IMG/VR virus record: IMGVR_UViG_3300045988_050969
DNA from: a virus
Reading direction: 5' to 3' (one strand)
DNA length: 64,000 bases
A model generated the notes under the pieces. That model was given only the letters and a program-made list of their open reading frames with translations, searched no databases and was not told where the DNA came from. This document shows positions 16,090-55,519 of the stretch, in pieces (position 1 is the first letter of the stretch; each line of letters opens with the position of its first letter). The translations under genes were made by a program, and so were the position numbers.

Positions 16090-16467
16090 ATGAAGAAGTT
16101 GAACTTTGATAAATACAACAAAGGGTTGCGTTATTATGCAACCCTATTTAAAATAAATCCAATAGTATTTACTTCAGATTTATTTATAGATATTACTATA
16201 GATAAAGAGTTTTTAATACTTCAATATAAAACATATCCTAAGTATTATATAGTAAAAAGAATCCAAGAAAATGAGTTTTTCTACAATGATATAATAAAGG
16301 ATAATATAGTTTGCTATAGATTTAAGTTAAAAACTAATGACCAAAAAGCTGATTTTAGCGTAATGCAAACTAATGGTACACAATTTTGTACTAAAGAGTT
16401 TATATTAAGTATGGCAATACTTTGGAAAGATTATTTAGATAGTTCATTTTATGATACTATATTTTAA
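16090..16467 (+). CDS. hypothetical protein (125 aa), last gene of the plus-strand module
   Basis: Intact ORF, TAA stop, followed by the bidirectional terminator. Confidence 0.5.
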   Translation: MKKLNFDKYNKGLRYYATLFKINPIVFTSDLFIDITIDKEFLILQYKTYPKYYIVKRIQENEFFYNDIIKDNIVCYRFKLKTNDQKADFSVMQTNGTQFCTKEFILSMAILWKDYLDSSFYDTIF

Positions 16468-16478: not shown

Positions 16479-16522
16479 CACAAAAAAGGCAGGCTTTGTG
16501 AAAAGCTTGCCTTTAATTTTTT
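16479..16522. terminator. bidirectional intrinsic terminator between the convergent modules
   Basis: 12-bp stem, 16485-16496 with 16503-16514 (one G-T pair), loop TGTGAA. Flanked by A6 upstream and T6 downstream, so both strands read hairpin plus U-run. Confidence 0.75.
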
Positions 16523-19500: not shown

Positions 19501-21434
19501 TTCTCAGGTAATTGAAGAGTTTGATGGTCTACACCAAATTCTTTCTATAACTATTCTTTAAACTATTTTAAATCTTTATAAAATCTACCGTAGTTTAGAT
19601 CTCTAATTATATAACCAGTAGTATTGCCATTCTCGTCTACTTCAAATAATAACTTCTAATTTCTATTTCCTGCTACCTTTAATAGTTTATTTAGTTCGTT
19701 AGCTTTTTGGAATACCACTTCATTTATACTATTCTCAGTATCCTACAATATATTAAATAAACTTTTAATAGCTTCATCATTAATTCTATCTCCAGAACCT
19801 AACACTCTAGTAATATAGCTAATATCAAAATCTGTTTTTCTAGTATTTTCAGATATATAGTTATATATAGTAGGGCTATTTACTTTCATGCCTTCCTTCA
19901 ACATAATTCTCTAGGCATTAACTACTTGCATACGCTTAACTGCATCATAACTCTAATCTAATATACTCTTACATAATTGTAGTTCTGTCATTAACTTATT
20001 ATAATTTGCTTCTCCTACAATTTGTTTATAAGTATTCATGTTTACTAAAGAATTATATATATCTTTAGCCTGTTCACAGTAAAAAGCAAAATAGTTCTTA
20101 TTTAATGCTACGAGTTCTTCATCTGTTAAAGCATCAGCCTGACCTTTATAAGCTTCTACTACTCTATTACCTACATCTCTTACATCTAACTTTAAATCTG
20201 TAATAAAAGAAGCAATAACATCAAAATCATTTATAGCATTATTCTATAAATTAGCTATCTGATATTTTATATTCTCTATTACTTCTGTTCTTTTAGATAT
20301 ATCAGAGATGTCTATACTACGTAATCTAGATTGTAAACCAGAGAGTAAGTTCTATCTTATATCAGATAACCTCTTATCTAACTCTTCTTTAGTATCAAAG
20401 TCATATTTTTCTGCTTCATGTATATTTGTTTCAAGCTGCTTAACTTTATTGTTTAATAACTTCTCAAATCTAACATTAGCAGATCCATTATTATCTTCTA
20501 GGTTAAAAGATAACAATTCCATTAGTATGTCTCTAGTATTCTCTGTATTTCTTACATGTTCTTTTCCGGTAAGTAAATCAACAATTGCAGACCATACTTC
20601 TCTTATCTTACTTATAGCTTCTTTAAATAATCCTCTCTATCTGGCATCATCTACTATATTATTTACAAATTCTTCATTAGTAAGAAATTCAGCTATAAAT
20701 TCAAATTCATCTTTTAAACCGTATAATCCACCAGTCTATTTGCCTTTTTCATCATGTATACTCTAATATAAAGATCTATTAAATTCTAGTAAGTCTTTTA
20801 CTTTATTATATACTTTTATTTCTAAATCAGTACCTATACCGCTTTTAACATTTTCAAAAGATCTTGAAGTAAATGCATGAACCATTTCATGTACAATACT
20901 CTTTGCATTGTACTCCATATTTGTTTCTTCAAATATCTCTTTATTAATCCATATAGTGTGAGTATTATCACTATACCACATGTAATCCCCATTAGCTAAT
21001 TGATCTTTTTCTTCTGTTATACCAATATATACATCAGTATCAGAGAATAAATCAAGTATCTAGTATGCTATAGAATCTTTTGGTATATACTATTTTAATC
21101 GTTCAACTACTTGTCCTGATGTGGTACTCATATGAGGAGAACCATCTGACCAAGTACCAGTAACACTACCTATACTTGAAAAGAAGTCAGAAGGTCGTTC
21201 CTAAGACGGTATAAACGTTTTAGCCATCTGTCTAATAGCTTGATCACGATCTCCATCAAAACGTTTTAAAAGGTCTGAAAACAGCTCAGACTAAGACCCA
21301 TCTGGGCCCTAGTCTATAGCATAACCATTGTTTTCAGATATGATATAATAAGCAGCATCTTCACTGCCTAACACTTTAGCAACTTCATCAACAGCTGCTT
21401 TTACTTCTTTGTTATTTAAATTTAAACACTGCAT
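16521..21434 (-). CDS. large virion-associated protein with N-terminal zincin metalloprotease motif (1637 codons, TAG read as sense)
   Basis: One frame is open from ATG 21434 to TAA 16521 if TAG is sense. ORF-track fragments 16668, 18177, 18534, 19116 and 20763 share the phase and all end in TAG. HEMVH lies at 20877-20891. Confidence 0.65.
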
Positions 21435-21436
21435 AA

Positions 21437-24400
21437 TTATTCACATTCTTTTTTACGTTTCTTACCCATTTCAACAAGATAAGTCATATCTACCACATCT
21501 TCAGTAACATCCATATTGAAAGCTTCATTTGCAATAGAGGAAGTATCTACATTTGCAAAAGGATCTTCTGTTTCTTGTGAGAATTGTTCTTGCATATTTG
21601 AGAATATATCTAACTATTCGTTTATGATGTCCATAGATTCAGATCCGTCAAATGGATTATCTAGACTAAGATTAACGAAATCTGATACATCTGTTTCATC
21701 ATATACTACATTATCTTCAGATAACGGGTCTATATTAAAGGTAGTATCTACTACTTGCGTATCAGATACATCACCTTCCATTTGCTTCTATGTTCCGTTT
21801 ATTTTTACCTAAATATTATCTGAACTAAGAGGTATAAACTGTTTAGTAAATTTACTTCCGTCCTTTAATTTAGGTAATTTAACTCTAGACATTGCAGTTT
21901 CTGCTATAACGCTATCATCAGTTAATACATTTTCATCAAATGCATTCTGATCAAAAGCTGATATATCCAAACCGCCTTTTGCAAACTCGTTAACTCTAAA
22001 TCCATTTTCTTTAATACCTAATTTAGGTATTCTCTTATAGATTAGTTTAGCCCCTCTCTTACTCTTCTTACCTTCATCACTTACATAAGCTATTTCACCA
22101 ATTAATTGATATAACTAAATTGATGTATTATATCCAGAACCGTTATTTACAGTTATGAATTCTGCTCTTCTAGTTCTATAATGAGGAACAGCGAAGCTGT
22201 CATACATAGTAATAGATTTACCTCCAATACTACTTCTAGATTTAGATAATATAATATCATAATCACTACTCTTAGAACGGTCTTCCTATTGTTGTTGGAA
22301 AGGATCGTTACTATTAGGCTTAAGATTGATATTATATTTAGGAACTATATTAGGATCATCCCACATATTTCTAGCTATAGTCAATCTAATAGAAGGGAAA
22401 CTCATAGATTGAGGATCATCACCAGTTTGAGCTATAGAACTATATCCAGATACATCTCCTCCATTTTTAAATTGGTCTAATACTTCTTTAATATTAGATA
22501 CATAACCATTATCTATCTTGTATTGAATAGGAACTAAATGGAAGAATGCATTTACTCCTCTTTCATCATAAGAAGTATAGTATGCATATTTAACCAGATC
22601 TTCTGCAAATTCTCTAACTACATCATCAGTATCTTCAAGTAATTGAGCGAAAGCAGATATTAACTGATTCTCTCTATCATAGTCATTATTCATTGAAGAC
22701 TCAGATAGAATAATTCTGTCTACATTCTAACCTTCTAAGCCATCTGCTGGATATTCCTATAAGTAATTTAATAATTCATTCTTTATAGTTCCATCTTGAT
22801 TAATAAGATGTGGGAAAGCATCTTTGTTAAGTAACAGATATCTTTTGAGTTTGGTTAATCTAGAACACATAGTATTCTTACCTACAAACATTCCTCTAAA
22901 TTGATCATCTGCCATTTTAAGGAAGTCAGTATTAGAAGTAGCTCTAGCTCTAATTATACTGTCAATCATTCTATTTATATTCTGAACAAACTTCTTATCG
23001 CCTTGATGTTTATAGGATATTAAATCATTACCATCTGTGCCTTTAATGATATCTCCTCCTACAATATTACCCATTACTGAATTAAATATATTCTAGTAAG
23101 TCCAAGTTGCGGGGAACGTTTGACTCTTAAGAATCTTTCTAGCTATAGTAGTAGCATTATATAACTTCTTACTTAAGAACGTATTACTAAAGTAGTATTT
23201 CAAAGCATCATCTACTTCCTTACCTTTTATTTCAAATACTCCAGAATTATCATATATAAACGTCTGATATGAATTTACAAAGTTTAACTGCAATGCTAGA
23301 TTGTTACCAAACTTCTTAGTATCAATCTGAGATCTATGTACTAATTCACTAAGTGTTTTAGCATCCATGCTTAATTCTTTATAAGCATGCAATACAATAA
23401 TCTGTTGATATAAGAATGGTAAATTATCCTGTTTTTTATTCTTTAAAGCGTATATAAGACTAGATTCATCAAATACCTGTGTCTTATCTATTACTTCACT
23501 CTTTATTCCAGGATATGCAGAGTACCCAATTTCTTCAGCTAAACCATTATATTTAGCTTTCCAATTTTGTTTACTTTCACCTTCTGGCATAGCGTCTATA
23601 GCTTCCTTAAGTAACTTACCATATACATTGTATAATCCAGTGATTATCTAGTTTTCCTATAGATTTTCAGCTCCATATACTCCCTTACTATTGATAACTC
23701 TATTAGATAACTCTTTTAATATAGGTTGAGCTAAGAAATAGAAAGTATTCTTACCTTTACCACCTCTAAGTAATAGGTTAGTCATATTATAAGTAACCTG
23801 ATTAACATTTAAAGCAATAATATAAGGATCTTTAGCAACGTCTACGTGGGCATTAATCATAGCAGATAACCAGTCAAGGATTCTAAATCCATCTTGACCT
23901 TTAATAGCATCTAAGTCTCCTAACTAATACACATTACTATGACTATATATCATATTAAGATGCATCAACTATGTTAATACATGGTTAGTAGAGTTAAGAG
24001 CAAAAGGAGCAATACCAGCTTTACCACTAGTATACTCTTCTTTTCTAGATTCCTAGAACGAAGGCAATAATTCATAGAAAGGATCTGCTTCTTGTTTACT
24101 AGAACTTGATATTAACGGTAGTACATCATCTTGTAGCATACCAGTAAGAGTATCAATAGATGCTCTAGTCTCAGCCATATTCTTAGTATCTGATACTACT
24201 AATTGATAATTCTGTATTATCATATTCTGCAACGCTTCAGGACTTTGCTCGCTTACTTTATCATTAGTATATTGAACTATATTTCCATCTGTATCGTAAT
24301 TCAGCATAGCAATATATAGTTTATCAACGTCAAAGTCAGAACCCGTCATGGCTGTAAATTCATCCGGAACTACGATAGTATCACTGAATCTATCAGGAAG

Positions 24401-27400
24401 TACATCTACTACTTTAAATGAGAAAGTAGAAGACAAACCCTGAGTAGGGATACGATAACCAATACCTTGTGGAGTAGAATTAGTACCAATTACATTATGG
24501 TCGGTTAACCATTTTTTCATAGCTCCGTAAGAAGTTTGATACTCTTTTGGTACTATATGTCTAAAAAAGTTAGTACTCAAGATAACATCCATACTTCCAT
24601 CTTTATTCAAGAATCTAAGTTTATTACCGCCATTAAACGCACCATTTAACTATGATTCTTTCATTCTAGCATCAGTTGCTTTTAAACCAAATGAAGACAT
24701 CTGAATAGCAGAACCACCAGGAGTATTAATATCTACTACTTCTTTATTTATAAATGATATAATTCTACTTTCAATCCATTGTCTACTACTCTGAGCTGCT
24801 AACGGAACAAGTATATTGCCATCCTAATCAAGAGTAAGACCTTTAACAAACTCATCAGACATACCAGAACTAACAGCCTAACTAACTAAGTAGTCTGATA
24901 AAGCCTTATTATTCAGTTTACCTTTATGGAAGAATCTCTTAATTATTCTCTTATAACCTATATCGGATAACTGATTAATGGCATCCATTGTCTGAGTCTT
25001 AATCTATTGACCAGTTTTAGTAGCAGCTTTATTAGTACCGTACACTCGATCGTCTATAAGATTACCTAAACATATTTTAACAGCCTAGGTACCAAACGAA
25101 CGGTCAATATGCTCATGTGGATCTGTATTCAACTGTAAACGTAAATTACGAATATCTTGAACAAATACAGGCAAATCTCCTTCTTTCTTAGTAAGATTGA
25201 AGGATTTTTTATTTAAACCGTCAACATTAAAGTGTTCGTTTTTAGGACCTTCATAAGCTTCAAATTTAGTTCTACCACCAACTTTAACAGCAGATTCAAA
25301 AGTAACCATGTCAATTACTCCTAATTTATCATTATTCATACGATTATATAAGACTCTATTATCAGCCTTAGCTATTACTTTGAATAATGGGAACATAGCC
25401 ATCTTATCAAATACAGGAACATTCAGATTTATATCACTTTCCCTATGGTCTCCAAAGTATACCATCTTTAACGGTTTAACTACGAGAGCTAAAGTTTTCT
25501 GATATAACTCTGGTTTATTCATCCATGACTCATCTTCTCCTTCCATTATTTGATAAGCTTCTTCGATAGCATCACTCCATTGTCCTAATGCTTTCATAAT
25601 ACGTCTATACATAGCAGGGCGAATATATACAGCAGCATCAGATTGATTGATATTACCACCTACGATATTTCCTTTATCATCTCTTCTGAAGTCATACGGT
25701 CTAGCACTAGCATTAGTATAGCTATCTACAAACTCTTTCTAATTCTGCGTAAGAGAATTATAGAAAGCATCTTCCTTCTATTTAGTAGATAAAGCCTATA
25801 TAACCTCATTGTCACTTAAATTAGGATGAGCTTCGCTGTATAAATCACGTAGAATAGAGTTTCTGAATATACTTTTTAATTCGTCATAATAATCAGAACC
25901 AAGCATATTGTCAGCAAGATGCATTACTGTTACTTTAGTATCATTCTCAGCTGGATTATCCCAGATAGTTCTAAGATTAGTACCAGTAGATAATACAGAT
26001 GATAAACGTTTAATTTTATCCACATCCTTACCGGTTATTATATCATAGGTTTCATTAAAGTGCCCTTTTCTATTAATTTTATATGTTTTCTTTTTCTTAC
26101 GTTTCCATTTATAATAAGCAGGATCTCCTGTAAAACATTTCTCTACTTCCATGATAGAAATAGCCTAATTAGCTACATGAGAACCAATTACAGAGAATAA
26201 TATATCTTGATTCTTAAGACCAGATTCTTCAGATGTATACATTGAATTATTTAGTTCTGATTTATAGTAATCAAATATGTTACTAGGTATTAACTTATTA
26301 ACATATTCACCATTTGAATATCCAAGTATACCTCTTTTTACAAGAGCTCGCATTTCTCTTTGAGTAGCGTGCAGTAACAAATGATTTATTGCAGAGAATA
26401 TAGGAGCAGAAGGTTCAATAACTTCTTTAGAATTAGGTTTAGATGTACCTAACAGTAATACTTTTAAATCTGATAAATACTTCTGAACCTCTTCTGTAGT
26501 ACCATATTGTTCCAATCTAGCTAATTCTTGATTGACATTTAGAACATCTTCACCAAGTCTTAATCTAGTAAAGTATCTGAATCTACCTCCATTACCAGTA
26601 TGATCCATCTTACCATTTTTAATCTTACCGTGGTAATTGTCTACTCTTAATGTAGGATGCTGTGCAATATAATCTTTCTTCTAGAAGTAATCCCATACTG
26701 CATTAAATTCATCTAACCAATAATTAGCAAATATATTAAGAGTACCTTGACTAAATCTTCTTTCTCCTACATAAGTAGAATTTTCAGCTGTTAAATCTTC
26801 TCCAATAATAGCTGCATAATTAGCATCTCCTTCATCAATATATTTACTAGTAAGAACATCTTTTACCATTTTGATACCTGATATACTATACCAAGTCTTT
26901 TTATCAGACATAGTAGGTAATATCATTCTATCATTAAAAGTAAGAGTAAGCTTAGCAATATAATCTTCAACAGGAGTAATACCAAAATAATCTCTACTAG
27001 ATTCATCTATATTCAGTGCTAAGAAAGTGTGCAATTTGAATTTAGTATTCTTAGCATTAGCTATCAAACTATGTGCAGAGAATGGAGTACTTAATATCTG
27101 TTGTTTCTTACCATTAGCATCTTGATTAATGTTACGCACTTGGTCTGTCATATAGTTATTTTCACTGATAGGATAAATCAGCGCACCATCTGCTCCAACA
27201 ACACTAAACTCTTGAGGAGAAGGATGAACCTTACCGTAAGATATTGCCATTACAGCTATCTAACTATTAGAATTTCTACCAAATGTAAACATTCTATCCA
27301 AAGTTCTAGAGTATCCACCACCTGATGTAGATTTTACACCTATGTCTTTAGTTTCAGCTAGTTTAATCAAAGTAGCCAAAGTACCTTCATTAAATCTCTC

Positions 27401-30400
27401 TGTTTTACCAGCTCCAGTGCCTTTCCAGAAATTATATAGCTTATCAAATTCAGTAGCTCCAACATAGAAATTATTAAGCATATAATCTAATGCTAAGTTA
27501 TCCATAGGAATAGACAAAGCATTAAATACATCCAATAAAGTATCCTTTATTTCCTATATCTTAGTATCATCTACCGGTTTACCTTTCTTTATTCTGTCAC
27601 TTACTATTTTAAAAGTAGAACTTAATTTACCTCTTCTATCTTTTAAGAACTTAGCAAACTCTGGTTTAATAAAAGGTCTACCACTATCTGTTCTGTCTAT
27701 AGCATCAGATGCAAAGAACATACCTGACCATCTAGCAGGAAGTCTACCTACTTTACGTAAGTTATCACTATCTTCTACAACCCAATTAAATTTACTTAAG
27801 CTAGATTGTATTTCACTAGCTATTTCATCTTCAGACTTACCTCTTGTATTTATTTTAGGATGCTTAGTAGTAATAGTGTCTAACTGTACTTTAGAACTCT
27901 TTATAGTTATCTCTAACTAAGTTTTAGTATTGTCAGATATAGGTGCTTCTTCCGAAGTAAGAATATCATATAAAGATTTAAAGAAAGGAATAGTATTACC
28001 TAAATTAGCACTTCTATCTATTATATCCTGATACTTATCTATATCCCATAAGTTCTCCATAATCTGATTCCATACAAAATTGAAATCTTCAGTTACAGGA
28101 AGTTGGAACATATCATCATGTACAGGAAATAATTCTTTAGTAATAACGCCGGTTTCTTCATCTTCAACAAATTGGTATTCATACTTAGGTATAGAGTAGA
28201 AGAACAGTTTAGCTCTAAAGCTAACGTTATCTTTCTTACTTACTTCACCTTGATTCTTATCCCAATTGTTTTCAGATTGTTCACCAGTCTCTACTTTTAA
28301 TCTAGACTCTTCCTCATTATCTACTTTTTCTACTTCTCTAATTCCTAATTGTTCTATCTTCTTACGAACATATCTAGTAAATATATCTTTGTTATTTACT
28401 ATATCCTGAGCAATATCTACATATTCGTCAGATATCCAACCAAAGTCTATATTCTACTGTAATCTGTCAAATAACAAAGAAGTATTAAGATTATGAACAT
28501 CCTCTATGGTTCTAATATTAAATATAGATAACGCTCCACTAGTAAGAGAATTAACAGCATGATAGAATACATCTGGATCAGTTATATGAGGTAATTTAGC
28601 TTCTTCTTCCTTTGATAAACCAGGTATATAATAAGATAAACCTTCTGGTTTACGGCTATAGAAATCTTCTAATGCTTGCTTAGAGGCTTTATAATCCTTA
28701 AACTAACCGTCATTTATACTCTTGAAAAAAGCTCTGATTATATTTCTGTGAGAATTCCAGAAGTACAAGGTATTATATATCTTCTTAAAGATTCTAATGA
28801 CATTATATAATAAACCTTTACCGTTTTGATCCTTAGCGTAATTACGGAATTCTTCAGCAAGCGCTTCCTCTGCTTCATCTTGAGTAAGATTTCTAGCACT
28901 TCTTTTAGATTTAGAATATTCTTGATATAACTTAGTTCTCTATTGTTCACTCAATAGCATTTGAGTTACATAGTGGAATGCTTCGTGATATTCTACACCT
29001 GCACCAGATTGTCTAGATAAAGATATACGAGGTATTAATTCGTTAGAAAGTGCATCCATTACTACACTGAACAAACCGTACGCCTCTTCATTAGCTCCAA
29101 ACTTAATCATTTGGTCTGTTACTAATATCTGATCGCTATCTATACCTAACTTATCAAATAACCATTTCTTAGCAGAATCTTCATTAAACTTACCTCTACC
29201 TTTAATAGTTGATTTAAGACCACCTAAGAACTTAATTGGAGTAAGAGTAACTTCTCTTTTACCAGTCTTAGGATTGAGAACAATACCCCATTTAAGGTAT
29301 TGACTTTCTTTCATTCCATTATCTGGTATACTTAATCCATATTTCTCAAGATTCTCAGGAGTAGCTCTTTCTGCAATTACAACTTTCTTACCACTAGCTG
29401 TCTTAGCTTGAGAAGGTTTGCTTACATCTTCTATTACTTTATCTTGAGTATTAACAGTAGGTTTAGGTTTGTCTTGTTGTTTCTATAATTCTTCTCTATT
29501 TATTGTAGCATCATCTGCATATATAAATGGAGCATAAAATGCATGTTCACCTAAATCTGTCTTTAATATTCCATTATTAATAGCCCATGTAATTACTAGA
29601 GGAGAATCAGACACCTTTACAGCCTTACCGTCTTTAAAAGTATAACCTATTTCTTTTAAAGAAAATGTTAAGTCTTTAGAGAATATAGGTATTCTACTGT
29701 TTTCGTCTTTTACTAGATTAGGAGAACTATTAGCTATAGACACTAGTAAGTCTATAAATTCTTGAGGGAATTCAGACATTAATACATCCTTATCAGTATT
29801 CCAGTGTATATTCTATGAAATCTAGAATACTATTCTTCTCTTTTCAAAATCTGTTAAAGTAGCTAAGTTAGTAAATTGTGTACTGAATCTCTTTTCGGTT
29901 CTAGGACCTTCTTGAGTATATACAGTAGCATCTTCACTATAGTATCCATTAACAAAGAATCTATTACCTTTATCATCAGTATATATACCTAATTGCTTTC
30001 TTACTAAGAAATTATACTTAACTCTTTCTACTCCTTCTAAACCATTAGTAAATGTATTAGAGCCACTATTAGCTAATAATGACAATAAGAAAGAATCAAT
30101 TACCTTAGCATTAGAACCTCTTACTGATGTCTGACCAGTAATAATATTAAATATTAACTCAGCAGTAGAAGGAGTAATGGGCTTTCCTTGCTCATCTACA
30201 TTTTGAGTGCCGTCCGCATTGAAGGCTAATTTAACCTGCTCTGGATTGTTTACTCCAGATATTCTATGCAATTCCTCAGATAACATAATAGGCAATGTAG
30301 CAGTACCAGAAGGAGTATTCTCAGGTTTAGGTATAAAGTATATTTTACCAGCATAACCTATACCTTGTGTTTCAGTCTTATCTCTAGTAAACATATCATC

Positions 30401-33400
30401 TATAGAGAAAGGATCAACACCAAATGGACCCGTACCATATCCAAACTGGATATCTCCACTAGTTATTTGTTCAGACATAGCAATAGCATCTTCTGTTATA
30501 CCAAAATCACTTACTTCAGTTAGCTTTCTAAACTTTGGTAATCCTGCCTCATCTAATTGATTATCAAGCTGACCGTTACTTATTCTTATTCCTACAGGTT
30601 TAACATGCTTCCTAGCAGTTAATGGTAATGTTTTAGTAGTAGAATATTCTGGAGCGTAAGCCTTAATTATCTTAGCTCTCAATTCTCTTAACTTCTATAT
30701 CTACTCATCTATTTCATCCTAAGTCATTTCCGTATCTCTCATACGGTCATACAGACTCTAATTGATTGCTCTAACAGATGCATTATACAGTTTACCATCC
30801 TTCTCTATCATCACGTGAATAGCTAAATTATCTATAGCACTATCAAATGACATGTCATGTTTAAAGGATGTAACTACAAAGTATATATCATCAGCTGTTG
30901 ATAACCATCCCGGAATAGCTAAATTATCAGCTAATTCTCTACCTGGTCTTCTATCAACTTTACCACCATCTTTACCTACAAACTTTACAGATTTACCAGC
31001 TACAGTAATAGGCATAACTTCATCTGTATTAGGCTGGAAGAAGAAAGTATTAGCTATATGTAATCTTCTGAATTTCTTTCTAGCAGCTACCCAACCATTA
31101 GTAGACCTATTATAATATGAAGAAGGACCCTACAATCTGGAATCAAAATCGTATGATTCTTCAAATGCAGATTGTTCTAATATATCTTGGTCATTTACAG
31201 GTATTCCGTTTTCAGGATTACCATCAGGCATGTATACTAGCTAATCGTTCTAAGCATCATAAAAAATTTCATCAGATTTTGGAGTGTCCTCTATTTCTGT
31301 AACATTTACTGGATTCTCTACTTGAGGAGCAATATCTGAAGCTGCAGGAGTATCCTCTACTTCTGTTACTGTAGGCTATTCTGCAGATCCTTCTTCCTTG
31401 TCCTGTAGTGATTCCTCAGCAGGAGAAAATTGAGCATCGTCTACTTCCTCCTGTTGCCCCTAAGATTCTTCAGTAGTAGAATCATCTGTTTGCTATTCTT
31501 CTACCTCTTCAGCAATATCTGTAGGTTCTACTGATGTAACTTCTTCAGCTGGATTCTGCATCTATACTTCATCTTCTATATCTTGATTAGTATTAGTAAC
31601 GTCATCCATTTCTACATCAGCTTCTACTTCATCTACACTTACTCTATCTTGTAGAGGAGAACCTTCTATAGCTTCCTCTAACATGTTTAGTTGATCTTCT
31701 AGACTACTTATTTCCTATTCAGCTATCTATACATCTGGTATAGTAACCTCTTCTACTTCATCCATAGGAGCAACCTCTGGAGCTTTTGTTTCAGTATTGG
31801 GAGTTCCTTGTTCTATATTTGTTAAATTACCAGTATCTTCAGCTATCTCCTCTCTACTTACTTGCTCTTGATCTTTTTTACGCTGTAAATCTTTCTGGAT
31901 AACAGACATAGCTCTTTTACGCTGTACTAAATCCTGGTCGGCAAGTTTATCGTCTTTGCTCCATTCTTCATTTACAGAGTTATCATAATCCTATATAATC
32001 TAATCAGAAGTTCTAGTCTTACCGTTTATCTTGTCTGCCTACATCTCATTAGTAAGTATTTGCTTCTGCTGTTCTTCGGTAAGATTATTATAAGTAGGTT
32101 TATACAATCTAGTATCACCTACATATTTTCCAGTAGTATATGCTAAAGCATGAGCGAATAAATCAGCTCTTGCCCCATCATTAACATACTTGCTTATGGT
32201 AGCTACAGATAATTGATCTGCAAAAGGAACAGATAATCCAAGATCCATTACCTGTTCTCCTACTTCTTCTCCTAAGAATCGCTGTATAACTGGTTTACGT
32301 TCTTCTATTTGAGATTCTACATACTTTATAATACCAGATATACCATCTACATTTACATCTAAATTCTTATCCTCTTTTAGTCTTTGTAAATCCTGTTTTC
32401 TTGAATTAAGTTCATCTCTAAGAGTAAGTAAGTCATTGTAATCTTGAACAGCAACCATTCTGCCCATGAATTCATTAGCATACTCTTCTTCAGACAGTAC
32501 ATTTCTTTCACCCAGTAATTGGTCTACGTATTCGGATAATTCCTTTTTACTTCTAGAAGTAATATCAGATGCAGGTAAATCATTAACTATCTGTCTTCTT
32601 CTATCACTACGTTTTTTATCATAGCGAGCTAAATAATCAGAATAATGTTGCTTTATTTCTTCTTTTAAATCAGCATCTTCTCTTATTTTCTGAATAACAC
32701 TTTCTATTTCTCTAGTAGAAGCTTCAGATGCTTCACTAGCATCTTTTAATCTATCTTGAATATATACAGCATTTTTTACTACAGATATAAAGTCATCATT
32801 ATTTATTCCTAGTTCATCAGTTATACTACGTAAAGACTTATTATTAGATAATCTTTCTATGTTATTTACTAATCTTATGTCTTCATCAATCATTTCATTA
32901 GTAACACCTTCAGGTTTAAATTTATCCTTAAGAGTTTCTAAATTATTGATTATTCTAGAATAACCTTTTCTTCCATCAGAACTAGCAGCATTCATGAACT
33001 GCTCTACCTTATTCTGCTTTTCAGCATTACCATATCCGTCAGCAATATAACCTCTCAGATTACTATCTGTAAGGTATTGAGCAGTAGCACTATATACATC
33101 CGGTGAACTAAATACTCCAGACATAAATAATCCAGTAAATCCACCTATATCCATAGATTTACGTAAATCAGCATCACCATTTAGATTCTCATCAGGATGA
33201 ATACCATAGTATGCCATATGAGCTTCTCCTGCTAATTTTAATGCATTAGCAGCTCCCTACAATAGACTATAATCTCCAGCATTATCATACTTACCAGTTC
33301 TATAGTAATTACTTACTACTCCCTGTTGGCCTTCTTCTGTCTTTTCCATGAAGTAAGAAACGCCTAATTTCTTACCAATGTTAGTGAGATTACTTATAGC

Positions 33401-35242
33401 ATTGTATGCTCTAGTTTTACCTCCAGGAGTTTTCCATGCTTTATCTACAGCTCTAGCAATAGTACGATCTATAATACCATCAGCTGCTGCATATAAATCA
33501 TCTTTACGTAATCTATCAATTACAGTAGTTTCTAGTCCAGAGGATATATTACGATTACCTACAGCTCTTTTAGCAGCTTTCTATAATCCAAAGTAGTTCT
33601 TCATATATGAACCACCAAACATAAACATACCTTGAGCTAAGTCAGATAACATTAAAGCTTGATTAGTCTATCTAACTACATCTAGACCTTTTTGAGAATC
33701 ATTTACTAGCTAATTAAAATTAGCGTCGGGAGTGATTATATTCTGTGATAAAGCGTTTTCTAATACTTCATAATCTGTCATTTCAGAAGTATCAAATCCT
33801 CTGGCTTTTAGCTACTCATCGGCAGATTGTATTACACTGGGAAGATTAATTCTCATCTAATCTGCGCCTTCTAATACTCTCTACTTAAATGAATCAAATA
33901 CTTCAGCTTGAGTTTCTGAATTACGAGTGTAATTAGTAATAGCAGCTTGAGTAGCTAATTCTGCAGCACCAATTAATAAAGGAGCAGTACCACCAGAACC
34001 TGCAGCCATAACTGCTTTAGATGCCCATTTGGCAGCCATGCTAGTACCAAATTGTCCTAACATAGCTCCAAATTCAGAATAACTAGTACCTAACTCTGGT
34101 AATGCATAAATCCAAGATTCTGGATTAAATGCAGATATTTGATTATTCTCTTGTTTTTCTCTAAACTCAGCAGATATTTTACTTGGGTCATACAACCAAT
34201 TACCGTGCTTTAAAGTATGTATCATACTTTGTATCTACTGATTTTTATCAGCTAAACGAGAACTTACAACCTTTTCAGCATTATTAAGCTATTCAATCTG
34301 TTTTGCTAAATTGCTGCCTTGGTTTTTACTACTCCACATATATTCTATTTGATCTGGAGATAATTGATGAGTTCTCCCAAAGATTGCATCGTTTATACCG
34401 TCATTAGCTAATAAGTGCTTAAAGTTATTACCAGGATTAAGATCACCAATATAATCTTCTGCTAGCCAGTCAAAACTATAGTATTTCCATAAGTCTGTTA
34501 CAGAACCAAATTTATCAGTACTGAATAATTTACCAGGTCTAGTCTCATAGAATATATCCTGTAAATACGGATTAGTTCTAGCTAGCTCTTTTAAACCAGG
34601 TTGATGATATATGATGTTACCGTTCTAATCTAATTGGTTTACACCATTTTCTATATTCTTAATATTATCTTCTAGTTCAATTATTCTATTCTGAGCTGAT
34701 TGAATTTGCGTAGGTGTCCAATCTGTTGCAGAATCAATCTATCTTTGTAAATCAATTAATTCTTGTTTACTTGTAAGATAATCTTTAGCTAGATTAATAG
34801 AATTTAAATAGTTAGCTTCACCCTCTCTAACTTCATTCTATAATCTACTTAATTTAGATTGATCCTTCTTTTCCATAAAACTACGATATACATCTAAAGC
34901 TTTTATGTCTCCAGACTTCTCAGCTTCATCGTACATATAGTCTAGGACAGTGATATTCTTATCCTTATCATCTGCGTCTTCACTAGACTGAAGTAATTCA
35001 GGCATACTTCTAGATGTCCACCAATTAGATATTCTACTTTTACTATCTTTTGTAGAATCTTCATTAGTAGTTTTATTATCGTAGTTTATATCGTTCTCTC
35101 TATCTTCTAATCTTCTTTGGTAATAATCTGATCTAGAATCGTATGAATACCCATAATCACCTTGTAAGGTATAATTAGGGTATTCACTAGCGATATTATT
35201 ATCTGTATTTTTACCTAGAGTATAGTTCTATTGTCTACTCAT
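21437..35242 (-). CDS. giant virion protein (4601 codons, TAG as sense) containing a crAss-type two-barrel RNA polymerase DxDxD motif
   Basis: 18 ORF-track fragments (22286 through 33881) share one phase and each ends in TAG. Start is ATG 35242, stop is TAA 21437. DFDVD lies at 24323-24337, and an acidic low-complexity linker at about 31260-31730. Internal gene boundaries cannot be excluded. Confidence 0.6.
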
Positions 35243-35251
35243 AATATTATA

Positions 35252-46092: not shown

Positions 46093-47010
46093 TTAGCAAC
46101 CGCATCCGCAACCGTTATTATAACCGTAGCCGTAGCCGTAGCCATAATCATTCAAGCCACCCTGACAACCAAAAGGATTGCAAGTTAAGTAAGCAGGAAC
46201 AGGACACGGACGAATTTGATTAACGATGTTTGCAGTTTGAGCTTGCTGAGAAGCAGACAATTGTAAAGCTTGTTTATCTTCACGCAAAGCATCGATCTTA
46301 TTCTGCATTTCTCTCATTTCGAGTTGACAGAACTTATCATTGATAATTTGAGTCTGTGCATCTATCTTAGCACCTACAATATTAAACTTAGATGCATTAT
46401 CAGCCATTAAAGAATTGAATCCATTAGTAATAGCGTTCTGCAGTGTGTTAGTCTGATTGCATACAGACAGCTGATTTTCATAACCCATCTTAGTGATGTT
46501 GTTATTTACACCGCTAATAGATTCTCTAACATTGCAGCAGCAGCTAGCTAACTGAGAAGCCAAGCTTGCATTACCAGAAGTAATAGCATTAATTACTTCA
46601 CAGCTAGACAATTTAGTATCGCAAGAAATCTGGCTTACTCCAGAATTGATAGTGTTAAGAGCTGTCTGAACAGAGTTAATATCACAATTCAAAGTATTAG
46701 CCAAGTTATTGATGGCATCTTTATTACCATTAATAGCCTGCATCAACAGATTAGTGTTAGCGTCACTGTTCAGTTCAGAAGCAAGAGCACCAGCGTTACG
46801 TCCGCCGAAACCATTACCACCGAAACCACCCCAGCAGAAGAAGATCAAAATGATCCAAATCCACCACCAACCGCCGTTTCCACCGAAACCACCGTTGTTC
46901 ATCATAGCCATCAAAGCAGCCGGATCCATACCTTTATTAGCGTTTTGCATTAGAGCAGCAAGACCAGCGTCAATACCGCGATCCTGCACAATAATTCTAT
47001 CTTCTAACAT
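46093..47010 (-). CDS. Gly/Cys-rich membrane protein of unknown function (305 aa, no TAG)
   Basis: Intact in the standard code. Features: hydrophobic WWWIWIILIFFCW flanked by GGFGGNGG repeats, a Cys-containing coiled region, and the C-terminus YGYGYGYGYNNGCGCGC. Locally higher G+C. Confidence 0.65.
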   Translation of the reverse strand: MLEDRIIVQDRGIDAGLAALMQNANKGMDPAALMAMMNNGGFGGNGGWWWIWIILIFFCWGGFGGNGFGGRNAGALASELNSDANTNLLMQAINGNKDAINNLANTLNCDINSVQTALNTINSGVSQISCDTKLSSCEVINAITSGNASLASQLASCCCNVRESISGVNNNITKMGYENQLSVCNQTNTLQNAITNGFNSLMADNASKFNIVGAKIDAQTQIINDKFCQLEMREMQNKIDALREDKQALQLSASQQAQTANIVNQIRPCPVPAYLTCNPFGCQGGLNDYGYGYGYGYNNGCGCGC

Positions 47011-47039
47011 AATTGATTTAATTTAAAAATTGATTTTTA

Positions 47040-47675
47040 TTAATATCTAACGTAGCGAACTGCTTTGCCACGTCCATATTCTGAATAAGGTTCGTACTCT
47101 TTTTCTCTTTCGAGCATACGTTCATAATCGTCTTCATAGTCTCTAGCTCTGCTAGTAGAATATACTCTACGACCACCACGCATCATACCACCTCTTCTAC
47201 CACCTCTACGGAATAAGCCTATGCGTTCAAATTCGTCGTCATCATCATCTTCGTATTTTTCACGCTTTTCAACTTCTTCCTCATAGCATTCCATTTCAGC
47301 TTGTCTGATCTTATCACACATAACGTAAATATAGTAATACCACATCTTACCTTCATCAATGTCTTTGTCATTGATCCAAGCTTTTGCCAATTCAACAAAA
47401 TGTTTAGTGCTATTAGAATTAGTCATACTTATAATTACCTTATAGTAATCAGAATAAACCATGTTAAGTGCTACGAACCAATCATAACGATTAAATCTGC
47501 TACCCAGATTTATTCCGTATTGACTAGCTAATGCGGTAGTTTCTTCTACAGACCAATGTGGTCCACGAGTACCATCCTCATTTTCCATTTTACTTACAGC
47601 TTTACGGGCATGTTCCTCATTGAAGTGAGGACCGTGTTCTGCTTCGTAAGCCTTTACACGAAATATTCTATGCAT
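47040..47675 (-). CDS. hypothetical protein with acidic and RGG-rich C-terminus (211 aa, no TAG)
   Basis: Intact in the standard code, locally higher G+C, TAA stop. Confidence 0.65.
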   Translation of the reverse strand: MHRIFRVKAYEAEHGPHFNEEHARKAVSKMENEDGTRGPHWSVEETTALASQYGINLGSRFNRYDWFVALNMVYSDYYKVIISMTNSNSTKHFVELAKAWINDKDIDEGKMWYYYIYVMCDKIRQAEMECYEEEVEKREKYEDDDDDEFERIGLFRRGGRRGGMMRGGRRVYSTSRARDYEDDYERMLEREKEYEPYSEYGRGKAVRYVRY

Positions 47676-47708
47676 ATTATTATTGATTAATATTATTGAA
47701 TATATTGA

Positions 47709-48945: not shown

Positions 48946-49968
48946 TTAAGGTTTCCGTTTTGAAAATCTTCTTGCATAAACTAATAGCTCTTTATAGCGT
49001 AATATTTTCTTTAGTAAGTTGATGCCATTACAATGTTTAAGCCAACCTATATGACTACACATTTCTTGTTTGTAATCTTCTACTGTAATGTTTTTCTTTC
49101 TGCCTAATCTAGCAGCTTTCCTACACATGCTACGCTTAATATTTTTTCTTACTAAAGTATAGTCATGCCTTATTACATAACCTACAAAAGATATACCTCT
49201 GTCTTCTACTTTAAATATCTAATAGTTATCTTTGAAAGTTAATTTTAAAGTATCTAAATACTATTTCATTTCTTCAAACAGTTCTCGTAAATACTCTTTA
49301 TCCTTATGTAGTATTACTATATCATCTGCATATCTGAAGTAATATTTAACCTATTTATCTTCTTTAAGCCAGTGGTCAAAGTAAGTAAGATACAGATTAG
49401 CAAAGAACTAAGATAAGTAATTACCAATAGGTACACCTTCTGCTGAATCTATTATCTCATCTAATAGCTATAATAACTTCTAATCCTTTATCTTCTTTCT
49501 TATTATGCTCTTTAATACTTCATGGTCTATACTAGGATAGAACTTTCTGATATCTAACTTAAGACAATAAGTAGTATTATCTACATCTTTTAAAGCTTCT
49601 TTAACATTATGTAATGCTTCGTGAATACCTCTGTGTTTAATGCAACTATAAGTATCTTTAATAAAGATAGATACCCATATAGGTTCCATTATATTCATTA
49701 CAGCATGATGTACTATTCTATCTGGATAATAAGGTAATCTAAATATTAATCTTTCTTTAGGTTCTCTAATTATAAATGTATTATATTCAGAAGTTTTATA
49801 CGTACCGTTAATTAAATTCTGCTATAGTTTTTTAAGTAATTCTTCTTTATTCTAGTCAAACTCTTTGATATCTTTTCTACTAGATTTATTTCTTCTAGCT
49901 TTCTTATCTGCTAAATATAAATTGTCTAAGCTAACAATCTTATCGAATAAATTATTATATCTCTTCAT
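48946..49968 (-). CDS. DGR-type reverse transcriptase (340 aa, 8 in-frame TAG)
   Basis: RT motifs DIRKFYPSIDH, IGNYLS(TAG)FFANLYL and YADD (49321-49332). In-frame TAGs start at 49852, 49822, 49480, 49468, 49408, 49351, 49261 and 49219. TAA stop at 48946. Confidence 0.85.
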
Positions 49969-50105
49969 AAATAATATTTTCTGAAATACCTTCACGCATC
50001 TTCACTTTCGTTACCAATGCGTTCAAGAAGCATGTCATATTTTACCAAGAGGTAAGGTTCAGCCCTTGATTTTTTGTCAGTTTATAATTTTTTTTACGTA
50101 TTTCA

Positions 50106-50201
50106 GTGTCCTGACATTAGCATTGGAATTGTCTAACTCATTGTTAGAATTCAAATTGAACAAACCTGCATTAGACTCATTGTCTGAGTTACTGCTGATT
50201 T
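50106..50201 (-). repeat. DGR template repeat (TR)
   Basis: 96 nt aligning without gaps to 50344-50439 (offset 238). It carries 35 adenines on the minus strand and 10 AAY codons in the VR reading frame. Confidence 0.85.
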
Positions 50202-50230
50202 ACTCACGACTGCAACCTTTTATTGGTTAA

Positions 50231-52792
50231 TTAAAACCAGTTTTCTTCAGATTCTATAGAATCCAATTGTTCATAATCCTCATCATTTAACTCTAATGTA
50301 GCTGGAGCAGCTGGCAATGCCGGTTCACCATAGAAGGTAATTCGAGTCCCGACACCAGCATCGGAATGGCCCAACCCAGAGTTAGAATCCAAAGAGAACA
50401 AACCCGCAGTAGACCCATTGCCCGAGCAACCGCCGATCAGAAGCGTCCTAGGTGTAGCTGTAGCACTAGTCCAGTGATAATCACAATAATAAGTTGTAGC
50501 ACTAGCTCCATTTCCTACTACAGTTGGGAATAGATCTGCCTAATTATTATTAACGAGTTTTTTTACATATTGACCAGTAATTGTACTTTCTTTAAAGTCT
50601 TGTAATTCATAACCTGCTGCAATTAATTGCTCTGCAGTAGGATTAGTTCCTCCTTCAAATGTACCAAACTTAGTATAATCTTTGCAGATGTATACACTAT
50701 TATCAGTACCAGCAACTACTACATCAATTACATTCTTCCACACATGACCAAATGGATTCTCAATACCACGGTATCTAGGAACATTAACTACCTTAGTACC
50801 AGTAGACGTACCCTCTGCATTAGTATTAGTATGTGTATATTCGATTATACCAGTACCATTACCTAATGAATTAGTAGTACCGCAAGGTACAAATGAATAA
50901 GTAGTAGCTCCATTTACAGTTACAGTTCCTGAAGTTACTCCATCACCCAAACCACCTTGATGATAACCTTCTGCAGTTAAATTAGCATTAAATGCTTTCT
51001 GACTATTCAATGTAGCATATTCTACTACGAATAACCAAGTAAGGTCTCTGTGAGCATCATAAGTATAAATATTCCAGTTGTTAGTTCTATTGTTATTTCT
51101 AGCCATAGTCTGGAATTCTGTTCTAGTTTTGCTTATTATAGGAGCAGTATTACGAACTTGAGTTCTTAATGAATTATTATGACTTGAACTATCTAGATTT
51201 ACACTTCCCTCGTATGCACCGATATATTTCTTCTCTACTTTAGTGTAACCAGGAAGATTGTATTCACTCATACGGATTTCAACTGTATTATCTGGAGTAG
51301 CTATAAGTAATCTATAATGTTCTGGAATTTCTACAAAAGCTTCTACACCAACCCCACTACTATCTTGAGATGAGGTAGTACCGTCTTCCCACTTAGTCCA
51401 GTCGTTTGCTTTTAAGTATTTCTTAGTATTATCCGTATTGCTGATAGTACACCCTCTCATCTTACTCTGGATAGGAAGTGTTTTATGCATTTCCATATTA
51501 CCAGTACGTACACCATCAGGACTAGAGCTATTAGCTAAGTCAAACTTAACTCCATACCACAGTTCATTTTCATTTCTACTAAGCTTACCAATCTCTTCAT
51601 CAAGAGTAACAGCTGCACTTATAGCACTAGGACTATCAGCTAAGTAATTAGTACTTGATAAGTCAGGCATTTCATTAGCTTCAGTTAAACCTACCTTATC
51701 ATTTACTTTAAGTATAGTACTTCTAAGCTCTGTAATATCTTGATTTAAAGCTGTCTCTAAACTGTCAATATTGCCTTGAAGTTCTGTATCCTTAGCTTTG
51801 AGTTCTTTCACTGCATTCTCTCTTGCAACCTTTTCATCATTAATTGCATCAGGAAGAGTTTCATTAATGGCTAACTTTTCAGCACCAGTCATTAAACCAG
51901 CAACAGTATTAGTAGCAGGAGTAATAGTAATATTAGATAAAGTAGACTGTACATATTTACCGCCGCTCTTTTCTACTCCAGTAAGACTGATAGTAATGTT
52001 ATTAACATCTGTCTGATCTAACTGGAATGTACTTAATAAATTATCTGGCATAGAGTTAACTACATTCTCCATAGCTTTACCCTTACCGCCATCATAAGCA
52101 GTACCAGTAATATCGCCAATGATAATGGCATTAGAATCAATGTGTACCCATTGTGAACCAGACCATCTAAATTGATAGCTTACTTCACCAGGAGTTACAT
52201 TAACATATATTTTATCTCTTTCACCTACTATAGGAGTTTCGTGTTCAGCATCTGCATATAACTGTATATTCTAAAGTACTCCAGTAGGAGATACAGTATA
52301 AGTAGCATATGCATCCATCACATCATCAACATATGAAGGCAATTGACTAGCAGGTACTTTACCATTACCATCAAGTTCAGCAAGACCATTAGGTTGACCT
52401 TTTAATGCTTTGAAGTCCTGTAAGTCTTCATTCACATCATCAATCTTAGTATCCAGTCTATCTACTTGAGCTTTTACAGCAGCATCACCTTTATTAATAG
52501 CATCTACTATACTAGTACCTTTAAAGTAGTTATTACTACTATTATCAGGTAAAGATATAATATCACTATTCTTATCATAGTTTAAACCAACAGATTGTAC
52601 AATCTCTTTAATATGAGTCCATTGGTCTACATTAGCATCTCTGTTTAACGGTATCCACTTCTTAAGATCAGGACTATATGACTTAATAACATTACCAGTA
52701 CTATCTGTTGCTAAGTCAATCCAGTAAGAAACCTCTTTAGGATTTGGAGCATACTTAGATGCTATGAAATTAGGATTTTCTTGTTTAACCAT
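50231..52792 (-). CDS. tail fibre / receptor-binding protein, DGR target (853 aa, 2 in-frame TAG)
   Basis: Fragments 52271..52792 and 50540..52072 share a phase and read through TAG 50540 to TAA 50231. Fibre motif LAELDGNGKVPASQLPSYVDDV. The C-terminus ...YYCDYHW...LLIGGCSGNGSTAGLFSLDSNSGLGHSDAGVGTR contains the VR. Confidence 0.75.
50344..50439 (-). repeat. DGR variable repeat (VR) inside the tail-fibre C-terminus
   Basis: 25 mismatches to the TR, all at TR adenine positions (minus strand). There are no mismatches at the 61 non-adenine positions. Confidence 0.85.
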
Positions 52793-52890: not shown

Positions 52891-53985
52891 TTATGTTATT
52901 GGATTTAATGCTACAACTTGACCAGCTTCAGTCTTATCAAAGTAATTAACTACAGCAAATTCCTCATCTGCTGCCTAACCGTCTCTACTGCTTACATAAC
53001 TCCTAATAAACTGCTGACCTCTCTTTTCACTATTACCTGCTACGTATCCGTATCGAAATGCAGTATCTATAGTAGGATGATATATGGTTCCGTCTTCATT
53101 CATAGCGATTACTTTAATCTATCCTTCTTCAGCCATAGTATTAGTATTAAGACACCTAACAGAACCTGTTATTATATTCCCATCTATGTTTGTCTAATTA
53201 TTCCATGTCTTATACTACTTACCGTTGAATGTAACATAACCATTAACCGAAGTACTTAAAGTGCCTTTAAACGTAAAATCTCTTTGTATAGTTAGATTGG
53301 GCATACCTTCCACACTATCGTCTACAGGATTAATTTTATAATATCTATTAGTATTTGTTCCATCCACGTGTATGACCGTTTCTCCAACCCATATTTTATT
53401 AGGCATACCTTCTTCATACACCCAACCATCTTTATCAGCGAATACAAATGATTGACCTGTTACTCCCATATCACTACCCTTCATTTGATACGCTTTTACT
53501 ATAACTCCTCCTTTATAAGCAGTACATTCAACAGTCACAATACCGTCATTTTTATTTCCAAACCAGTTTCCTCTAAGCTATACAATTAACTATTCCGGCA
53601 TAGTTAAACTAGGATCATTAGTATATACATCTTGTATGGATTTAATGTCTACCATTACACACTCTGCTCCAGATTGAGTGTTATCGCCTCCCCAGTATAA
53701 AAACGGTTGAGTTCTATTTTCAGACGAACCCCAATTCCATCCTACTATTTCACTAGGGATACTAGGAGCGTTAGTGATGTTAGTACCGGTATCAAAATCT
53801 CTACCGTTAGAATCAGTCCATATGAATCTCAACTATATACTATTGAAATCATAGAAGTAAGCTACATCATCCCTAGTAGGCCATATGTGACTCTAACCAT
53901 CAAATACATCAGATATATTAGTATTGCCTACGGTTCTCTTTTGTAGGGGAACTGCTCGTCCCCCTGCTATACCTAACTCTAACAT
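52891..53985 (-). CDS. tail-fibre-associated structural protein (364 aa, TAG as sense)
   Basis: ATG 53985 overlaps the upstream TAA (TAATG). Fragments 53590 and 53215 share a phase. TAA stop at 52891. Confidence 0.55.
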
Positions 53986-54605
53986 TATTCACTCTCCTCA
54001 TCAATAATATTATAAGTCATACCTGCTACTTTAGTAAGCTGATTATATTCAGCTTCAGTACCAGTCCATATAGGTAATGATATCTTACCATTATTAGCAC
54101 TAGGTAACGCTAAAACAACGCCAGTACCTTTGTTCATTGCCTGTTGTACTGGATCTAATACAGATATCTTATTCTCACGAATCAGTTTATTTATTAACTG
54201 AGTAATGTACTCTTCATCAAGCAGCTCACCAACATTACCAAGATTATTTTCAATACTAGTAATCTTATTGTTAATGCTAGTTATGTTCTGCTCAATATCA
54301 TTTATACTAGATTCAAGATTAGTAATTCTATTATTAACAGTAGTTATCTTACTATCTAAGTTATTTATCTTATTAGTAAGTTCTGATATACTTTGGTTAA
54401 CTTCATTCTTGAAATCCCCTACTGAAGATTCTATAGTAGCATCTATATAGTCTTTAATTCTATCATCATTAATTACTAAATCAACAATCTAGTTTATAGG
54501 AGCTTTATAGTTATGTTCCTTTTCAGCTACAACCATGTATTCACTACCTTCAAGATTGCGCTTAGGATCTAGCTCCAATATCTTTATGCCATCACATTTA
54601 TTCAT
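53985..54605 (-). CDS. coiled-coil fibre protein (206 aa, 1 in-frame TAG)
   Basis: Heptad-like N/I/L-rich repeats (NKINNLDSKITTVNNRITNLESSINDIEQNITSINNKITSIENNL). ATG 54605, TAA 53985. Confidence 0.55.
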
Positions 54606-54610: not shown

Positions 54611-55516
54611 TTACTCTTTAAAGAATCCACTAGGAGCACTTACTTTATTAAATACTACACTATCAGTAGTAGCTAATGATAATTGAGCTCTAGTAACTAC
54701 ATGAGGATTATCTCTTCTAGCTGCATGGGTATCAATAGCATTTTGTGCATTAGTAATCAATTGTTTAAGCTCATTAATTTGGGATTGCAGATTATTATCT
54801 GCATTAGTTCTATTTTCAATCTCTTGATTAATTAACTCAGTAAGATCGGTAACTTTACTATCTACGTAAGTCTTAAGTTCATTCTTAGCCTTAGTAATCT
54901 CACTATTTATATAGCTTCTTAAATCACCAATCTATTGGTCTATTTTACTATCTAACTCTTGTATATTCTGAGTTAATTCAGTAATCTTTTGTTGAATAGA
55001 ACTTAAATCCCCACCTATTACTTCAGTTATATCTTGACGTATCTCTTCAATATTAGAATTGATATTAGTAATATCTTGATTTATATCATCAATGTTATTA
55101 TTGATATCTGTAATATCCTACTTGATATTATTAACATCACCTTTGATGTCATTAATCTCATTTCTAATATTACTAATCTAAGTAGTTAACTCTTCTACTT
55201 TCTGATTAATATACTACCACAGTTTATTAACTTCCTCTTTCAGTTCATCTTTAAATTCAGCTAATTCATTTCTGATTTCAGTTATAGCTTCATTAATAAA
55301 CTGTTCTATCTAATCAAGAGCTCTATTAATATAATCAATGATAGCATCTACTTGCTTATCATTCAGATCTAGCATCTCCCATGTATTAGTATCATTACGA
55401 TAATACCTAATACAACCACCATAGTAATTAGATGTAACGTCAATCCAATAATCTACTTCTAGAGGATTAGGCTACGTATCTGATGCTCTAAATCTAACTA
55501 TCTCTCTCTGTAACAT
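54611..55516 (-). CDS. coiled-coil fibre protein (301 aa, TAG as sense)
   Basis: N-terminal PNPLEVDYWIDV, shared with the DGR target's PNPKEVSYWIDL. Long N/I/D-rich coiled coil. ATG 55516, TAA 54611. Confidence 0.55.
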
Positions 55517-55519
55517 ATA

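Follow-up and report, generated by a model that had tools for sequence, protein, structure and literature searches.

The DNA analyzed here is a stretch of 64,000 nt (hereafter the window) from the IMG/VR virus record IMGVR_UViG_3300045988_050969, and the element under study is a diversity-generating retroelement (DGR) whose reverse transcriptase (RT) gene is located on the minus strand at 49968..48946. Taken together, the data are best explained by a DGR of a late operon that has been recoded, so that the eight in-frame TAG codons of its RT gene are read as Gln, and we give this explanation a probability of about 0.88. One of the eight encodes the signature Gln in motif 4 of the enzyme. Judged by its sequence, the window is part of the genome of a gut phage of the Crassvirales (Suoliviridae, Blohavirus-like), in which TAG is predicted to mean Gln in the late genes (genetic code 15). 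It is approximately 96.5% identical to RefSeq NC_055889.1, crAssphage cr53_1 (Crassvirales; Suoliviridae; Loutivirinae; Blohavirus americanus), and covers about 64 kb of a genome of about 100 kb. The original prediction, made from the letters of the window alone, had reported a TAG at 49408-49410 within VPIGNYLS-TAG-FFANLYL and a total of eight in-frame TAGs in the RT gene, and both statements were confirmed exactly.

The RT gene consists of 340 sense codons followed by a TAA stop. Neither TAA nor TGA occurs in frame ahead of this terminal codon, while about 20 of them would be expected in 340 random codons of the minus strand by arithmetic from the base composition; TAG, with eight copies, is not avoided in this frame. 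The reading frame and all catalytic motifs are intact. From the last to the first, the in-frame TAGs span 49219-49852, and they are located at codons 39 (49852..49854), 49 (49822..49824), 163 (49480..49482), 167 (49468..49470), 187 (49408..49410), 206 (49351..49353), 236 (49261..49263) and 250 (49219..49221), all on the minus strand. The first of them falls in a column that is variable among homologs (K/R/Q), and codon 49 is aligned with a Q of bRT, the DGR RT of a Bordetella phage. The columns of codons 163, 167, 206 and 236 are variable too, with TAG, CAG and TGG found at codon 167 in close relatives. Codon 187 stands in the context EGVPIGNYLS-TAG-FFANLYLTYFD and closes motif 4 (I-G-N-Y-L-S-Q, codons 181-187, 49408..49428), and codon 250 (KDNY-Q-IFKV) belongs to the second column of the RT in which Gln is invariant. 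The catalytic YADD (codons 213-216, 49321..49332), which pairs with YMDD of bRT, lies 3' of six TAGs. Without suppression, termination at codon 39 would leave a product of 38 aa. Eight of the ten Gln codons in the RT gene are TAG, including those for both Gln residues that never vary, the one in the SQ of motif 4 and residue 250.

The RT protein was searched with the eight TAG positions masked as X, and no amino acid was thus presumed at any of them. The masked protein matched RVT_1 in Pfam (E 8e-19), and its best match among solved structures (phmmer, PDB) was bRT (8ub7, E 3.9e-43). The runner-up PDB matches, at about 1e-17, are group II intron RTs, some of which were deposited as 'retron-type reverse transcriptase'. 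A further match was obtained to PHROG 1423, reverse transcriptase, with an E value of 7e-119. In the phmmer alignment, the masked codon 187 falls opposite the Q of IGSLTSQ in bRT, whereas group II intron RTs show P at this site (…GGNLSP…, …GGILSP…). The TAG at 49408 therefore corresponds to the SQ position of motif 4, as had been proposed; a check set beforehand, on whether an alignment would place this codon outside motif 4, was run, and the codon stayed within the motif. With TAG taken as Q, I-G-N-Y-L-S-TAG reads as the signature [I/L]GxxxSQ, and YADD conforms to YxDD.

An assignment as group II intron RT or maturase was considered and rejected on account of the P in place of Q at motif 4 in that family, the score against the NCBIfam group II RT/maturase model TIGR04416 (127.7 bits, with a cut-off of 300), and the presence of a template repeat (TR) and a variable repeat (VR) instead of an intron RNA. 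The scores against the NCBIfam models for defence RTs (Drt) and retrons are likewise under their cut-offs. Because the group II, defence-RT and retron scores all fall short, we regard the label 'intron reverse transcriptase', given to the RT of cr53_1 in RefSeq, as loose. The predicted protein has the features typical of DGR enzymes. For crAss RTs of the Epsilon group, GxxxSP is reported (PMC12386605), and Q at this position is thus not universal among DGR RTs. Inside the RT's own family, represented by 102 standard-code homologs, the Q of motif 4 is invariant.

A protein search yielded thousands of relatives. The database proteins of the close ones are full-length and carry Q at all TAG positions, and they were rejected as evidence for the meaning of TAG since they had been called with code 15, which makes the argument circular. 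An analysis of DNA loci at the codon level was therefore used instead. A total of 160 homologous RT loci, 80 from viral contigs and 80 from bacterial or archaeal genome assemblies, were translated with TAG as its own symbol and aligned to a profile, and the codons were read at the eight TAG columns. No in-frame TAG is present in the RT of 102 loci, including isolate scaffolds of Alistipes putredinis DSM 17216, Dyadobacter and Niastella; the recoded loci in the comparison, with in-frame TAG in the RT, number 56.

At column 187, CAA or CAG is found in 102 of the 102 non-recoded homologs, and the 56 recoded ones possess TAG (40), CAA (13) or CAG (3) and no other codon. A homologous RT with a residue other than Gln in this column had been named in advance as the finding that would speak against the claim, and there is none among the 102 standard-code homologs. 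Column 250 gives the same picture, with Q in 102 of 102 non-recoded homologs and TAG (26), CAG (23) or CAA (7) in the recoded ones. No other column of the RT has invariant Gln, and the window has TAG in each of the two; eight random positions of 340 would hit both with a chance of (8/340)(7/339), or about 5e-4. In the column of codon 49, TAG (27), CAA (20) and CAG (7) occur among the recoded relatives, while the non-recoded homologs mostly have H. Relatives with at least 89% identity replace TAG by CAG or CAA at five of the eight positions, codon 187 among them. The claim that TAG means Gln in this gene is borne out by these counts.

The DGR cassette, on the minus strand throughout, is composed in order of a tail-protein target with the VR in its C-terminal part, a non-coding TR, a structured spacer RNA and the RT gene, followed by lysis genes; the genes directly 3' of the RT gene encode a holin and a lysis-regulator-like protein. 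The target gene (50231..52792) encodes a tail protein of 853 aa with two in-frame TAGs and matches PHROG 5302, tail protein (E 9e-45). The VR (50346..50437) is a 92-nt repeat at about 0.4 kb from the start of the RT gene, and the TR (50108..50199), also 92 nt, lies between target and RT, 238 nt downstream of the VR. The two repeats differ at 28 positions, and all 28 have A in the TR and another base in the VR. Their homology ends at ...GTC(A/G)GGAC, beyond which the sequences diverge, and no clear GC-rich initiation of mutagenic homing (IMH) element is definable. The TR begins about 30 nt after the stop codon of the target (50201-50230), and from the arrangement the cassette appears to be a minimal one of target, TR and RT. 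Searches of PDB, NCBIfam and Pfam by sequence gave no C-type-lectin assignment for the C-terminal domain of the target, and the sole fold lead is the RefSeq note on cr53_1, 'tail protein; similar to sulfatase, major tropism determinant'. The TR has the usual make-up, with ten AAY codons, and none of the three stops, TAG included, can arise by mutation of a codon inside the repeat. The idea that the TR is adapted to code 15, for example by tolerating A-to-T changes that create TAG, was rejected on this ground, the TR being in no special way fitted to the recoded TAG.

The spacing between the TR and the start codon of the RT gene is 139 nt, and it accommodates a putative structured RNA (49977..50059, minus strand) similar to the Rfam family RT-17 (RF03020). 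In a local search the window scored 33.7 bits (E 7e-5) against a gathering score of 40.4, and the same family exceeds the gathering score directly 5' of the RT in five homologous loci. The element probably serves this RT family as its DGR spacer RNA. In the DGR of Bordetella phage BPP-1, the spacer RNA primes cDNA synthesis, and by analogy the RNA in the window is presumably its counterpart. A 41-nt repeat touching this region (49951-49991 and 53984-54024, 76%) was dropped, as it looks like a chance match of AT-rich sequence.

Comparison of VRs among close relatives points to an active diversifier. A total of 21 near-identical genomes were compared, with RTs that are 89-100% identical and contain five to nine in-frame TAGs each. 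The TR is almost invariant in these relatives and the 60-nt VR flanks are conserved as well, while the VR cores are distinct in 21 of 21. Variable VR positions fall on 29 of the 32 TR adenines versus 4 of the 60 other positions (Fisher p 2e-16). By this pattern, the DGR is active in this lineage, and read-through of the RT's TAGs must therefore take place in nature. The opposite reading takes TAG as a true stop, the RT as a decaying pseudogene and the whole DGR as a dead relic, and it can draw on the fact that the standard code breaks the RT gene into pieces of at most 113 codons. It is contradicted by the lack of TAA and TGA where about 20 are expected, by the intact frame and catalytic motifs, by the conservation of the RT open reading frame (ORF) over 56 recoded relatives down to 60% identity, and by VRs that differ in each of the 21 genomes at TR adenines with TR and flanks conserved. 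We consider the pseudogene already refuted, with a negligible probability left to it.

The recoding of the RT gene is embedded in a genome-scale pattern. Bases in ORFs of at least 150 codons increase from 31.7 kb to 63.1 kb once TAG is treated as a sense codon. The early block (plus strand, 640-16467) contains eight apparent in-frame TAGs in 4819 codons, or 1.7 per 1000, and all eight are located either at most three codons from the ORF end or ahead of a downstream ATG. The late block (minus strand, 16521-64000) contains 214 in-frame TAGs in 15476 codons, or 13.8 per 1000, which amounts to 31% of its Gln codons. Nearly every late gene has some TAG, and the RT gene lies inside this TAG-rich block beside the lysis genes. 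Two early ORFs on the plus strand end in '...TAG TTA TGA' (10634-10642) and '...TAG AAA CGT TAA' (11431-11442). From these endings, TAG in the early ORFs looks like a real stop in the standard-code mode, and the TAA or TGA behind it would serve as a back-up that catches read-through after the switch.

Several observations weigh against the recoded DGR as read here. No Avd gene was found, there being no ORF between target and RT and no Avd-like match in Pfam scans of five neighbouring proteins. Many phage DGRs are without a recognisable Avd, and the missing gene therefore does not exclude membership among DGRs; most Zeta crAss DGR cassettes also lack one (PMC12386605). Nor was a suppressor tRNA found in the 64 kb of the window, where the tRNAs are Leu(taa) and Arg(tct) only, and the decoder proposed for this particular genome is therefore one known from relatives. 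The genome of cr53_1 has a tRNA with anticodon CTA (tRNA-Gln in its annotation) at 6664-6738 between small, nearly TAG-free early genes and terL, at a locus that the window does not reach. The anticodon arm of this tRNA also occurs in at least 10 IMG/VR contigs bearing this RT. One incomplete IMG/VR contig of 76 kb with an RT 100% identical to that of the window is not among the 80 of 91 tRNA(CTA)-pattern matches listed, which is uninformative either way. In cr53_1, about 350 nt of non-coding sequence separate the tRNA(CTA) from terL, and the first acceptor pair of the tRNA, read from the sequence, is a U·U mismatch. As theta ribozymes have been reported in the literature, a ribozyme was sought with Rfam next to the suppressor tRNA of cr53_1, and the tRNA itself was the sole match.

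To these points it must be added that the columns of six of the eight TAGs vary (K, R, H, A, W and others) and give little information on the inserted amino acid, and that some close relatives have TGG in place of TAG at codons 163 and 167. Such swaps are a single transition at sites where Trp is tolerated. They can also be taken to say that TAG encodes an amino acid other than Gln (Trp, Tyr, Lys, Glu, Leu or Ser) and that the RT tolerates this residue at motif 4; in the same direction, Trp is mildly enriched (2.4-fold) at TAG-bearing columns, and ARAGORN labels the tRNA of cr53_1 by its anticodon only. However, both invariant columns are Gln in every standard-code homolog and offer CAA or CAG as the only alternatives in the recoded ones. 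Gln is by far the most enriched residue (4.8-fold) in standard-code homologs at the 39 columns that have TAG in any recoded RT, and the tRNA(CTA) of cr53_1 is a tRNA-Gln in the RefSeq annotation. Metaproteomics has moreover demonstrated Gln at TAG in crAss-like phages, giving peptide proof of code 15 (PMC9523058). Decoding as another amino acid is thus very improbable.

The original prediction went on to claim that the full-length RT cannot be made unless amber suppression is active, and that DGR activity is thereby tied to the late-gene switch. The first part follows directly, because the first TAG is codon 39 and YADD stands behind six TAGs. As for the second part, the location of the RT gene in the TAG-rich late block by the lysis genes agrees with it, while the suppressor tRNA is seen in relatives only; a tie between DGR activity and the code switch is a reasonable inference from the model in the literature (bioRxiv 10.1101/2021.08.26.457843; PMC7886860; PMC10136315). 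In the mechanism that we propose, a phage tRNA with anticodon CUA, of the kind seen just 5' of terL in close relatives, would decode the TAGs of the RT gene. A standard-code host would contain no active RT until the suppressor works, with translation otherwise halting at codon 39, and adenine-mutagenic cDNA synthesis and VR replacement would be limited to the late phase, at which time the genome exists in many copies. With the RT absent before the reading of TAG changes, the mechanism itself would restrict diversification of the tail fibre to late infection. If suppression is in competition with release factor 1, the eight serial TAGs may also lower the yield of RT relative to that of the target, which has two TAGs in 853 codons.

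The share of TAG among Gln codons is higher in the RT gene than in any other gene of the window, 8 of 10 versus 206 of 689 in the remainder of the late block (Fisher p 0.0017). Of 57 recoded relatives, 52 likewise have a higher share in the RT than in the late genes that flank it (mean 0.54 vs 0.29), a comparison in which shared ancestry is uncorrected and the loci are not independent. This enrichment leans towards selection. The RT might then be a preferred target of TAG recoding, the serial ambers acting as a safety lock and a dose limiter that keep the diversifier silent before the switch and scarce after it, although we hold this version to be unlikely. The coupling may instead be a passive by-product, in which synonymous changes from CAG to TAG accumulate in the late operon by drift or C-to-T bias, the TAGs of the RT serve no regulation of their own, and late transcription alone sets the timing. 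TAG makes up 31% of the Gln codons over the whole late block and affects almost all late genes, close relatives flip between TAG and CAG or CAA at five of the eight positions, codon 187 included, and in a clade at about 67% identity the TAG share of the RT is low, 0.23 compared with 0.28 in the flanks. Fast-evolving genes gather in-frame TAGs as well, according to Lou et al. (bioRxiv 10.1101/2023.08.07.552389). All this fits the passive version, against which stand the top rank of the RT in the window and its excess over neighbouring genes in most recoded relatives. We put the odds of the passive version at about even, and regard it as at least as likely as the selected one.

Other genes of the late block were noted along with the cassette. 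Two adjacent genes on the minus strand, 46093-47022 and 47040-47708, have no in-frame TAG at all. The product of the former is rich in Gly, Cys and Asn and that of the latter is acidic and rich in Arg; the corresponding labels in cr53_1 are 'spike protein/glycoprotein' and 'sigma factor/ubiquitin-like'. These two TAG-free genes could be translated before the code switch. Two giant ORFs (minus strand, 16521-21440 and 21437-35251) comprise 1638 and 4602 codons with 37 and 61 TAGs, and their counterparts in cr53_1 (gp56 and gp57) are annotated as hypothetical proteins only. They are presumably large virion proteins or RNA-polymerase-containing proteins typical of crAss-like phages. Within the coiled-coil gene 54611-55519, imperfect tandem or dispersed repeats of 42 nt are found at 55025-55250, and these reflect heptad-like repeats of a fibre-like protein.

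With respect to annotation, RTs of this type will be fragmented or overlooked by gene callers that use the standard code and by DGR finders. The gene also provides a clean worked example of how one conserved motif residue can reveal what a reassigned codon stands for. A small addition to what is known is that code-15 crAss-like phages cannot have the enzyme that diversifies their receptor-binding protein until TAG is read differently in the cell. This coupling is of importance only if it proves to be under selection, for instance as a limit on RT dose or off-target mutagenesis; at present, it is what would be expected when two well-described features share one operon. The essential elements have all been described before, and the TAG at the signature Gln and the TAG bias of the RT are corollaries that hold no new biology. 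The novelty implied by the original prediction could not be upheld, since recoded DGR RTs in code-15 phages have already been published.

Among the systems described before, the reassignment of TAG to Gln in late genes is known from Delta-group crAss-like phages, together with suppressor tRNAs (Yutin et al. 2021, PMC7886860; review PMC10136315), and a timer for late genes and lysis was hypothesized from stop-codon recoding (Borges et al., bioRxiv 10.1101/2021.08.26.457843). DGRs in crAss-like phages have been described as well (PMC10136315). The timer systems (bioRxiv 10.1101/2021.08.26.457843; PMC7886860) share with the window the restriction of TAG as Gln to late structural and lysis genes in standard-code hosts, a suppressor tRNA encoded by the phage, and preferential recoding near the lysis cassette. 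They differ in the gene families concerned: the preferentially recoded crAss families of these papers are an amidase, a spanin, a tail tube protein and one unknown, and neither RT nor DGR is mentioned.

Closer still are the code-15 DGR RTs that have been published. Bacteroides phages of about 99.6 kb that use code 15 and persist in infants have DGR RTs with multiple TAGs (bioRxiv 10.1101/2023.08.07.552389), and PMC12386605 describes recoded DGR RTs in Zeta crAss-like phages, where GxxxSQ is noted and amber suppression is noted in seven RT genes. The published cases share with the window a multi-TAG RT beside a recoded tail-protein target and a VR that changes over time. The Zeta group is another family, some members of which possess Avd (PMC12386605). 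Neither the signature Gln as TAG nor the RT as one of the most TAG-biased genes is remarked upon in the available text of these two sources. The nearest genome, cr53_1, matches the RT and target region at 96.5% identity and has its genes in the same order; its RT is annotated as a coding sequence of 1023 nt, i.e. through the TAGs, and its late genes are TAG-rich while its early genes are nearly TAG-free. It represents another strain, which has a VR of its own and differs at a few TAG/CAG sites, and its record, apart from labelling the RT as that of an intron, leaves DGR, TR and VR unannotated.

The well-characterized DGR of BPP-1 (bRT-Avd, mtd; 8ub7) belongs to a temperate Bordetella phage, whereas the phage of the window is a virulent crAss-like podovirus. 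Avd was not detected in the cassette of the window, where the TR directly follows the target gene. Unlike bRT, the RT of the window needs amber suppression, as eight of its Gln residues, including the signature Q, are encoded by TAG. The two systems nevertheless share the RT family, with motif 4 I-G-x-x-x-S-Q and YxDD, and the adenine-specific copying of TR into VR. In both, the VR is placed at the C-terminal end of a tail (receptor-binding) protein adjoining the RT, and the stretch from the TR to the RT gene contains a structured spacer RNA.

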